Shown here: in pieces, positions 3,985-7,829 of the stretch | How the letters are laid out: each line of letters begins with the position of its first letter | Numbering within the stretch: the first letter of the stretch is position 1 | NCBI GenBank assembly: GCA_008632985.1 | Contig: QPGO01000214.1 | Span: 1 to 64,000, forward strand | Source: Psammoneis japonica | Lineage: Eukaryota | Length of the DNA: 64,000 nt | Reading direction: 5' to 3' | Notes under the pieces: model-generated | What the model was told of the DNA's origin: nothing | The model's input: the letters and a program-made list of their open reading frames with translations, nothing else | Databases searched by the model: none | Program-made: the position numbers and the translations under genes

Positions 3985-5690
3985 ACAAGCCATGCTTTGA
4001 GTAAGAAACGTCGATCCGATCAAAGTTGGTGTGCTTTACGAGTCGAAAAGCAACTACGGTCGTTATCGTTTTTGTTACACGGTCCGTCTTTTGGGAGGGC
4101 TTTTTGGACCGTGGTGTATTGGACATGCTCCTCAATACCTTGAATGATACGGTATCTATTTCGTTGCAGAATGGCTTTTCTCTGGAAAACGGTCTTATGA
4201 CGATCCTGCACTCCGATTTTTCAAGCGTACACAATAACCTACTACAATATGTTTTAGAATGTGCGGGTAAGGCCGGGTGAGACAGCGTCAGATTACATGA
4301 TGCTATGTGAAGCATACTAATCAGCCCTTGGTGTGGGATACCCCGAGGACTTTTTGCGTCAACTACAGGCTGTTCCGCTCTCGGGGTACATTAGTTGCCG
4401 AGCAACATGTCGAGTGGGCGCTCCGGGTGCGTGTCTCGTCGTGGTTAGTATCGTGGTGGGGGTATGATAAATTGGCTAAACGCCTTTTCGACCAAGGTGT
4501 GCTTCGAGCAAGAAACATTGGTCAGATCAAATGGAGAGTTGAACCGAAAGTCCTACTCCGGAAGTAGAATTGGGAGGTTCTTGTTTCTTTTGCGTTGTTG
4601 ATTCCACCATCTTGTATGCAATTGGAGTTGGCCTATGCTCAATATTTTGAAGCCTGGCTCATCGACAGAGACTTTTCGATGCTGCCAAGTCGCCAACGAA
4701 ACGGAGAGTCTAGTCGCCATTTCTGACGATCAGGTGTCGCTGAAAGCTGCTTGCCAGCCTTCAGCATCGTCTCTGTAGTCGATGTTCTATTGGATGCGAG
4801 ACTTATCGGCGAGTCGCTAGCTTCTGCAGATATTTTTTACCTTGCCTCCTACTATTCTTGGGCGCGTGTCTCGTCGTGTAAGTATCGTGGTGGGGGGAAT
4901 GTTAGATTGGCTAAACGCCTTTTTGACCAAGGCATGCTTCGAGCAAGAAACGTTGATCCGATCAAAGTTGGTGTGCTACACGAGTCGATAATTCTAAAGG
5001 GTTATAGCTTCTTGAACGGTTCAGCGAAGAAAGAGCTCCAGCACGATACTTGCCATCAAAAGTGATTACTTCGGTCATGCATCGTACAGTATTTCCGATT
5101 GAATGGGAGACCGGTGGTTATCCTTTATATTGCACGGTCCCTCTTTGGGGATACGAAGGCTTGGACGGTGGTGTATTGGTCATGCTCCACTATGCCTTGA
5201 ATTACGATATCTGTTTCATTGCACAAGAGCCTTTCTTGTAAACCGTAATGATGATCCTGCAACATCGGCTAATGGATTACACCCTCTCAACGGAACTCCT
5301 ATATTTCAAGCGTACACAACCTACAATATGTTTCAGAATGTTCGGGTAAGGCCGGGATGGCAGCGTCAGATTACATGATGCTCCGTGAAGCATGGTAATC
5401 AGCCCTTGGCGGGCGATCCCGAGGAATCTTTGCGTCAACCTCAGGCTGTATCGTTCTCGCCTAAGCCTACAAGCATTGCCGGGCAACCAAAACCGTTACG
5501 GCTTTGACTTTATTGACGCTTTGGCTTGGTTCCAAGGATACAGTGGACTTGAATGGCTACTTCTACTGTCAATACAGCGCTTGTGTTCCTCATGCTGGGT
5601 TGGTTTTGGAACTTCATGAATGATTTGGTCCTGCAAAGTGACAGCGCAAAATCTTCAGACCATGGAGCAGCAGCTACGGAGCGCTTTGCA
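3985..5690. repeat. Degenerate, locally duplicated sequence family (pseudogene or TE fragments)
   Basis: Blocks recur: 'aagaaacg..gatccgatcaaagttggtgtgct' at ~4003 and ~4945; 'ttggctaaacgccttt' at ~4472 and ~4907; 'cagattacatgatgct' at ~4289, ~5367 and ~7465; frames broken by stops. Confidence 0.65.
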
Positions 5691-5936
5691 GTATAAGTTG
5701 ATCTTGACAGGTGGACTGCACTGCGTGGAAGTAAGACAAGTACGCCCAAGAGAGTGCCGCGCTTCTTTTGAAAGAGCGAAACGAATAGAACAGTCAATGA
5801 GATGCAGCAGTTGTTTCTATTGTTGTTTTCATCCGTTCAACACCGTCAAGTCGCAACTCGCATCCAACTCCCAACTACGAAGTTCCGTCTGCATGCTTCC
5901 GTTTGTTCTCCCCCCCCCCCCCCCCCCCCTTCGTTC

Positions 5937-6446
5937 GCCGTGCTTCGCTTCCGTTGCGCCCAACGTTACATTACTTCTCTCCTTTCCTTTATCAATCTGA
6001 CCAAACGGAGCCTTCAGTGAGTTTCCTCTCCGGTTCCCGCCTTTCGAGTCTTTGCTGGACGACCCGTTATTCTCGCGATTCCAGGCCACTGTGAGATTCT
6101 ACTGAAAGAGCAATATCTCTACTAGGAGAACTACATCGGAAAGGCTGTCGGGATGCTCAAAACAATACGATCCGAGACAAAACCGGTTGGTTTGCCGTGC
6201 TTCGCTTCCGTTGCGCCCACCGTTCCATTTCTTCTCTCCCTTTCTTTGTCAATCAGACCAAACAGAGCTGTCAATGGATTCCTCTCCAGTTTCAGCTATT
6301 CGAGCCTTTGTTGGACGACCCGTTATTCTTGCGATTCCAGGCCACTGTGAGATTCTGCAGAAAGAGCAATATCTCTACTAGGAGAACTACATCGGAAAGG
6401 CTGTCGGGATGCTCAAAACAATACGATCCGAGACAAAACCGGTTGG
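5937..6446. repeat. Tandem duplication, ~257-bp unit x2, preceded by a C20 run
   Basis: 'gccgtgcttcgcttccgttgcgccc...gagacaaaaccggttgg' at 5937-6190 and 6194-6446. Confidence 0.85.
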
Positions 6447-6791
6447 TACAAAGATTATCAAAGTTCATCCACGATATCATTGAATTCTCTTTCGCTACGC
6501 TGTGCCTTTTGTATTTATGAGCCTGCGCGGAAGCATACTGGCTTGTATCTGTGCTATCGTGTCCTCCAATGGCGACATTCATTACCAGCAAATGCTGCAT
6601 AGACGCTTACAATTCAAGATTTTAGACAATATTTTGTACTACTACAATATTATCACTTTATTTGAATCAGGCACAAGGTCGATTCTAAGGAGTCGGCAAC
6701 AAAAGAAGTGGTCGACTCGTGTGTTATAAATGCAAAGAATTTCGGAGGCAGTGGGATTAATGGTCATGTAAGAAGTGGTTCTCTCATGGAA

Positions 6792-7439
6792 TTAATTCTC
6801 AAAGAAGCGGGTGGTTTCTAGATTCACGGCTGCTTGCCTTTCATTGGCGGCTGCTTGCCTTTCATTGGCGGCCGCTTGCCTTTCATTGTCTGCTGCGTGC
6901 CTTTCATTGGCTGCTGCTTGCCTGGCCGCTACGTCGTAGCCTCTATTAATGAGCTCCAATTTCTCACTCGACTGCATGTTTGAAACGGTCATCGATGGCG
7001 TCGTTGCCATGGCGTTTCGTTGTCGCTCCATCACCAACTGCAAGGTGGCTTCTGCCAATTTCTCAAGGGAGCGGGTTGTTTCAATATTGGCGGCTGTTTG
7101 CGCTTTATTGGCGGCTGCTTGTGCTTTATTGGCGGCTGCTTGCCTTTTGTTGGCTGCTGCTTGCCTGGCCGCTGCGTCGCAGCCTCTGTTGGTGAGCTCA
7201 CTCGACTGCATGTTTGAAACTTTGATTGACGGCGTCGTCACCGTGACGTTCCGTTGTCGCTCCATCAACAACTGCAAGGTGGCTTCTGCCAAAATCTCAA
7301 TGAAGCGGGTGGTTTCTAGATTGGCGGCTGTTTGCGCTTCATTGGCGGCTGCTTGCGCTTTGTTGGCGGCCGCTTGCCTTTCATTGGCCGCTGCTTGTCT
7401 GGCTGCTACTTCGTTGCCTCTGTTGATGAGCCTCAACAT
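6792..7439 (-). CDS. Repetitive Ala-rich coiled-coil-like ORF (QAAANER heptads within a larger ~80-aa repeat)
   Basis: 215-aa ORF built from 21-bp units in three higher-order blocks ending in NLETTRF / NIETTRS; function unknown. Confidence 0.4.
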   Translation of the reverse strand: MLRLINRGNEVAARQAAANERQAAANKAQAAANEAQTAANLETTRFIEILAEATLQLLMERQRNVTVTTPSIKVSNMQSSELTNRGCDAAARQAAANKRQAAANKAQAAANKAQTAANIETTRSLEKLAEATLQLVMERQRNAMATTPSMTVSNMQSSEKLELINRGYDVAARQAAANERHAADNERQAAANERQAAANERQAAVNLETTRFFEN

Positions 7440-7829
7440 CTCACTCGGCCGGGCGAGACGGCATCAGATTACATGATGCTCCGTAAAGCATGGCAATCAG
7501 CCCTTGGTGGGCAATCGCGAGGAATTTTTGCATCAACTGCAGGCTGCATCATGCTTGCCCAAACCCACAAGTGTTGAACAACAACCAAAAAAGTTGCTGT
7601 TTTGAGTTTTTGATGGCTTGGCTTGGTTCCATGGGTGCAGCGGACTTGGGTGGCTGCTTCCACTGTTGTGATGCAGTGATCCCCTCTGTGAAACAATTGT
7701 CCGTTGATCTCAAAGAATGGTGTTTGTCACTCTGGTTTAGTTTTGGAGCTTCATGAATGATCTGGTCCTGCAAAGTGACGGCACAAAATGTGCAGACCAT
7801 CAAACAGCAGCTGCAGAGTGAACCAACAT

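Follow-up and report, generated by a model that had tools for sequence, protein, structure and literature searches.

Loss of TpA from a pseudogene copy in the diatom Psammoneis japonica probably reflects a position-guided hypermutation domain

In fungi, repeat-induced point mutation (RIP) is a transition hypermutation associated with repeats and leaking into their flanks; it turns CpA into TpA, is triggered by pairing and mutates both copies of a duplicate. In diatom transposons, CpG decays through 5-methylcytosine (DNMT5-type). A third system acts at TpA only, in the alga Bigelowiella natans, where integrated DNA of nucleocytoplasmic large DNA viruses (NCLDV) as well as of virophages undergoes hypermutation from T/A to C/G, with ADAT2 proposed as candidate in the available part of the report (Mettrop et al., bioRxiv 10.64898/2026.01.13.699255). 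This was the one report of TpA-specific hypermutation that we found; it concerns an unrelated alga and, in the part available, gives no account of how targets are chosen. It was also the sole match in the literature searched (in which subscription papers are thinly covered), which held no report of TpA hypermutation in a diatom, and in the available part of its main text the strings "diatom", "spread", "boundar", "CpG" and "context" are absent. Here we have analysed a stretch of 64 kb (the window) from the start of contig C216 (QPGO01000214.1) in the 91 Mb assembly GCA_008632985.1 of Psammoneis japonica, in which a pseudogene copy beside a 7-bp satellite array (copy C, 7447-7822, + strand) has lost most of its TpA. 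We believe, with a probability of roughly 0.7, that this copy is explained by a domain of TpA hypermutation that is nucleated by repeats and guided by position.

Two further pieces of the same pseudogene lie to the left of copy C, also on the + strand. Copy A (4057-4383) has normal TpA, and copy B is longer and includes a 3' flank (block 4860-6578, core 5340-5700). The gene from which all three derive is intact on contig C2 (L004, 469 aa, Glyco_hydro_99, Pfam PF16317, E 6e-14), and a further broken copy of this GH99-like gene on contig C153 (L005) provided a second outgroup. A 74-bp deletion is common to A, B and C and a second one to B and C only, so that the three are local duplicates, with the intact gene as the proper outgroup; judged by these deletions, copy C arose by local duplication. 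According to the two outgroups ten TpA sites are ancestral. B kept nine of them and changed one, while C kept two, changed seven to CpA or TpG (at 7494, 7547, 7566, 7595, 7636, 7655 and 7812) and had one deleted, a loss beyond the background of 11/106 A/T transitions (binomial p 8e-4; Fisher p 0.02). Among 12 ancestral CpG, 11 remain in B; C kept four and turned five into CA or TG. A first-pass annotation, made by a model from the letters of the window, had listed nine TA pairs between B and C and read them as TA changed to CA or TG in C. All nine are there in the alignments of the copies, and at seven an ancestral TA was indeed lost in C. The direction is otherwise at B 5462, where both outgroups have CA and the TA is a gain in B (an outcome that the annotation itself had named as telling against its reading, here for this one site), and at B 5564 both outgroups have TG, leaving a loss in C ambiguous. 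A contig from the public sequencing run X1 (record 8) has 0 differences to the window over 6764-7830, although the assembly may have been built from this very run. X1 also contains a stretch of 157 letters, ca. 93% like B 5616-5774, that lacks all five TAs (four went by transition, the fifth through a gap of two letters); it is absent from the assembly matches and could be another copy or an erased allele.

Copy C is part of a TpA-erased domain at 6950-9220. Across the window the ratio of observed to expected TpA is ca. 0.5-0.8 in genes and below 0.1 in erased blocks of this kind, mostly accompanied by loss of CpG. The domain is saturated from ca. 7500 to 9130, tapers to ca. 6950 on the left and ends on the right within ca. 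90 bp. Most of the saturated part is the degenerate 7-bp satellite (7822-9128, + strand), with 0 TpA in 1309 bp where base composition would lead one to expect ca. 55. The left end of C sits in the taper, which continues ca. 500 bp beyond the copy into three ca. 234-bp units with 21-bp sub-repeats (6794-7446), whose open frame on the minus strand had no Pfam match above the cut-off. Susceptible TAs return at 7406 and stay sparse as far as ca. 6950; the unit farthest from the array keeps five TAs, the middle one has changed four of those and the nearest keeps two. To the right, the probable limit of the domain is a single-copy host gene (9293-11437, minus strand) with diatom homologues (14 matches, covering 23-44% of one exon frame at 43-69% identity) and nothing in Pfam above the cut-off. 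The edge is asymmetric about the array, the first susceptible TA standing 414 bp away on the left and 92 bp on the right.

The annotation had placed a sharp boundary inside copy C, marked by two TAs kept at its left end in a resistant TTA/TAA context. In fact the edge is gradual and extends past the copy, and the two TAs do not mark it. The one at 7484 is not retained but new in C, as the alignment with the third copy has G in A, B and the intact gene, and a TA in TAA context 10 bp to the right, at 7494, was lost, while C retains an ancestral TTAG at 7738, which is 85 bp away from the array. The resistance itself is roughly right, in that TTA/TAA accounts for 41/50 survivors in saturated domains against 458/1243 TAs in normal DNA; the real protection, though, is that of YTAR (33/50 against 201/1243), and TTAC/GTAA, the class of both left-end sites, survives in saturated domains at only ca. 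6% (RTAY at 0-2%). One count favours the boundary as first drawn, with 4/5 ancestral CpG of C kept to the left of 7525 and 0/7 to the right, this break having been chosen post hoc.

It had also been suggested that erasure spreads outward from the array with distance. As nucleator of this particular domain the array is the most plausible candidate, at somewhat below an even chance: the domain measures only ca. 2.2 kb, is centred on the array and contains no recognised transposon or other nucleating repeat, and susceptible TAs climb leftward from 0 through 1 and 5 to 19 per distance bin. The right side (6, 8, 4 and 12 per bin, with the first site already at 92 bp) does not follow such a gradient, and even on the left the loss is not monotonic, as the 234-bp unit nearest the array retains sites that the middle unit lost. 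The satellite belongs to a family with arrays on other contigs, and the 14 other segments that we sampled are all within erased DNA, at least 1 kb of it on nearly every side. Within 250 bp of their 28 ends there are 8 susceptible TAs against ca. 180 expected (a hand sum, in which some ends face another array), which agrees with spreading from arrays; but arrays so deep in erased DNA are uninformative about cause, which cannot be separated from company. As a general rule, nucleation by the 7-bp array is hardly credible, since an 11-kb domain on contig C156 has no such array and gypsy retrotransposons are changed in their interiors despite normal flanks. We rejected an origin of the array from a TA-rich unit, because the other arrays vary between CA, CG and TG at one place only, fitting CpG decay. 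Alternatively, copy C and the array might have undergone erasure at another place and arrived here in one block, which would account for the abrupt right edge and for the non-homologous junctions at 7447 and 7822. However, the neighbouring copies A and B have derived deletions in common with C, the taper runs on into the adjoining 234-bp units, the first of which is unmutated, and our genome searches found no donor copy, so we consider a move of this kind quite improbable.

The claim that position rather than homology alone decides which copy is hit was borne out, mainly at other loci, where duplicates and the paired long terminal repeats (LTRs) of retrotransposons could be compared. A segmental duplicate shared by contigs C156 and C21 has balanced losses outside the C156 domain (10/134 vs 11/132) and one-sided losses inside it (49/57 vs 0/6). 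Compared with a third copy, the edge of this domain is graded over ca. 450 bp (2/12, 3/9, 8/12, then nearly all), and CpG is still kept in the taper; in other words, TpA loss runs ahead of CpG loss. This is an in-copy boundary of the kind sought in copy C, at another locus and without the 7-bp array. A 700-bp tandem pair on C153 is also one-sided, with 27 losses vs 0. As a control, a 4.2-kb segment of the window (14195-18398) and its inverted duplicate (C216:69811-74000), 95.7% identical, have intact TpA in both copies (186 and 179 TAs); at 15035-16036 (minus strand) this segment, and with it the inverted duplicate, carries an open frame that encodes an ADP-ribosyltransferase domain (PF03496, PF01129). 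Along similar lines, in paired LTRs of one gypsy family (14 of 18 copies, the 4 without an end being excluded) the LTR with the TA-poorer flank had lost more (rho -0.68, p 0.007). Both LTRs of an element share sequence and copy number.

Repeats make up most of the affected DNA, and even in normal surroundings gypsy elements are changed, as one would expect if pairing of homologous copies were the trigger, and guidance derived from the copies (e.g., small RNA) may help to nucleate domains. Yet the close linked duplicates, A with B and the 4.2-kb pair, are untouched in both copies, the affected pairs on C153 and C156/C21 are one-sided, and the C156 edge falls within a continuous duplicate. Homology as the sole trigger is largely refuted, and a pairing trigger like that of RIP seems very improbable. 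The process resembles RIP as a repeat-associated transition hypermutation that reaches into flanks, but its direction is the opposite one; with CpA to TpA change absent and close duplicates not both mutated, we rejected RIP as its identity.

The change itself could be measured on this Ty3/gypsy family, consisting of the element in the window (46103-50920, minus strand, open frame of 1381 aa) and 17 other aligned copies, the two most diverged of which were excluded from the counts of context. The LTRs of the window element match at 292/293 positions, although its middle is partly erased and ca. a third of the core TpA sites are already changed, so LTR identity understates the damage. The other copies have lost between 18/211 and 108/118 of the TAs of the window copy, with CA and TG about equally frequent as outcomes, while the remaining sites differ by 1-8%. 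At 176/229 multiply changed sites TA, CA and TG are all present among the 18 copies, which identifies TA as ancestral with no need of an outgroup. Of the 85 differences between the LTRs of 11 full-length copies, 78 affect TpA, one affects CpG and six affect other sites (a 61-fold TpA excess), so the change takes place once an element is inserted in the chromosome, and it outpaces CpG decay by far. Even elements with normal flanks carry changes, concentrated in their middle and scarce towards the ends. This tells against a reading in which repeats are purely passive; they seem to initiate domains on their own. In a single case (L106, contig C75) the two target-site copies of a gypsy element differ by one TA/CA change, a hint that host bases beside an insertion can be changed. 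Editing at the RNA level (ADAR-type) was rejected, because LTR pairs differ, both outcomes occur and non-retro DNA is changed too. The grading of loss among copies, which tracks their other divergence, also bears on whether base-calling or assembly of modified DNA could have produced the pattern as an artefact. Neither for the assembly nor for run X1 is the sequencing platform recorded, but with this grading and the identity of the X1 contig the chance of an artefact is close to negligible. With respect to other diatoms, we found no relative of this gypsy element in metagenome contigs. Around 42 environmental orthologues of a host gene there were 0/305 TpA-free 1-kb windows, compared with 20/64 here, though these contigs are short and gene-centred and carry little information on repeats.

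TA changes to TG or CA on both strands independently, in a manner that depends on the neighbourhood. Private A to G changes reach 21/90 at TA and only 3/657 at AA, 7/483 at CA and 5/604 at GA; private G to A changes at CG amount to 53/551. The rate of TpA change depends on the +1 base (T 31%, C 27%, G 13%, A 10%) and is 32% with C at +2. The preference is for T[A]Y, hottest at T[A]YCR, and YTAR is cool. A dependence on adjacent CpG was unsupported, TAYCA (0.47) and TAYCG (0.49) being about equal; broad CpG density correlates weakly with change (rho 0.23 at 200 bp). Polymerase eta acts on AA as well as TA. A polymerase-eta-like, error-prone polymerase or repair patch that places G opposite T in the same domains would fit the patchiness of the changes within a copy (332 adjacent changed pairs vs 261 +/- 6) and a small sense-strand excess (0.25 vs 0.21, p 0.015, uncorrected for context). 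We regard it as distinctly unlikely: the raised A to G at AA of the polymerase-eta WA signature is missing, AA staying at background, neighbouring changes show no strand coordination (0.514 vs a null of 0.508) and an adjacent CpG is not needed. The lesion might instead be a modified thymine at TpA, again in the same domains, 5-hydroxymethyluracil (5-hmU) or an oxidation product mispairing with G. This would be compatible with the sequence, and 5-hmU is enriched on dinoflagellate repeats, with an oxidised form that reads T to C, in the available part of PMC11071213. The genome gave no match to Tet_JBP (PF12851), but the control genomes were equally blank, which makes this result uninformative. 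We think this lesion unlikely.

For this step alone we favour adenine deamination over both, at odds that come close to even, because AA is not raised and the pattern of 5'-T and 3'-pyrimidine recalls TadA editors. Adenine would be turned into inosine by a putative DNA adenine deaminase of the TadA/ADAT family. An evolved TadA adenine base editor prefers YAC (PMC12703980, in the part available); the available part of PMC10471085 has nothing on TadA context. The likeness lies in A to G change in DNA with 5' T and a favoured 3' pyrimidine, but TadA editors are engineered, and in P. japonica CA is barely changed and TAT is as hot as TAC. Candidate genes are present, of ADAT2-like and TadA-like type as well as two A_deamin genes. 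The ADAT2 on contig C26 (read across two frames) has HxE, PCxxC and the conserved N, features that are common to eukaryotic ADAT2 and not diagnostic. The ADAT1/ADAR-type catalytic domain occurs in two separate genes (L153 on C40, L154/L155 on C79), in whose scanned frames a double-stranded RNA (dsRNA)-binding domain was unseen. Contig C79 also encodes an unusual fusion of a deaminase domain to a DIOX_N/2OG-Fe(II) oxygenase (L071, 313-1785, minus strand), presumably for nucleobase salvage.

In comparison with the closest described system, and within the available part of the Bigelowiella preprint, the signature of the process in P. japonica matches. Both convert TpA to TpG or CpA on both strands, are confined to regions, run against the usual AT bias and have TpA-poor windows tied to transposon domains. 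The excess of A:T to G:C change at TpA only, the two outcomes TpG and CpA, the discrete regions and the presence of ADAT2 are all found here. Bigelowiella belongs to a different supergroup, and there the de novo measurements come from two single-copy viral regions in which much TpA remains, while here we find near-saturated domains that make up a large share of the sampled DNA, include satellites and host pseudogenes, lose CpG and have graded edges. The process there targets foreign or mobile DNA; here gypsy copies are changed, but host-derived pseudogene and duplicate DNA is affected too. The rate in Bigelowiella was raised ca. 1000-fold de novo, in some lines only, as against ca. 61-fold in our LTR pairs. 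Decay of 5-methylcytosine is similar in that CpG goes to TpG or CpA in the same domains and that C5-methyltransferases are present (at least five open frames in the genome), but it covers only the slower CpG part (1/85 LTR-pair differences) and not TpA. Several of the C5-methyltransferase copies (L081-L083 and L087 on C297 and C301, L090 on C28) lie within TpA-poor domains; some of them contain stops, and in one group CpG is kept although TpA is lost. On contig C2 (895000-925000) some blocks are TpA-free yet fully retain CpG (50-88 per kb), so the two losses are separable.

A scheme that would join these results is one in which domains start on repeats (retrotransposon interiors and, for the domain of copy C, probably the satellite), extend by anything from a few hundred bp to ca. 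2 kb into the idle DNA alongside and halt at working genes, the slower loss of CpG in the TpA-erased domains being ordinary 5-methylcytosine decay. Such domains are probably silent chromatin. Several points weigh against this interpretation. The silenced state is itself deduced from sequence, and edges at genes could reflect selection instead of a barrier. TpA is palindromic, and from sequence a lesion in A cannot be told from one in T. The deaminases look like housekeeping enzymes, whose scanned frames revealed no domain for reading chromatin or binding dsRNA, and the lack of strand coordination among gypsy changes speaks against a processive pass along a single strand. As for the paired LTRs, a sign test was weak (8/11, p 0.11), and two LTR ends by TA-poor flanks (C122 5' and C17 5') are little changed. 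The broadest version, in which a diatom defends its genome with a natural DNA adenine editor, guided by chromatin, nucleated by repeats, spreading to idle neighbours, stopping at working genes and having rewritten at least a third of the genome, is a tentative proposal to which we give less than even credence. If true, and shared with the rhizarian, it would point to an old counterpart of RIP across the stramenopiles, alveolates and rhizarians (SAR), of opposite polarity and with a positional trigger in place of pairing. The paired duplicates and LTRs supply a rule for targeting (dependence on neighbourhood, edges that are graded, TpA loss in advance of CpG loss). With this rule and the fingerprint of sequence context (hot at T[A]YCR, cool at YTAR), the search for the enzyme and for the mark that guides it is open to direct tests. 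Because two of the three stop codons are erased in the domains, repeat ages, GC content and gene calls will be distorted in such genomes.

Elsewhere in the window our scan for TpA detected saturated erased domains at 1-3350, 19950-27550 and 52050-57500 and an additional TpA-poor block near 60000. In 264 kb of contiguous DNA taken around the paralogues, and therefore a non-random sample, 99 of the 1-kb windows have at most 8 TA and 132 have at least 20. Two host genes in the genome have named diatom homologues, in Conticribra and Cylindrotheca. A search of Rfam over 3000-12000 gave 0 matches. Within the domain at 19950-27550 there are a 400-bp self-inverted repeat (24278-24677) and a 117-bp tandem array (26610-26957), and a 260-bp element (2633-2892 and 20206-20465) is common to different domains and to contig C2.

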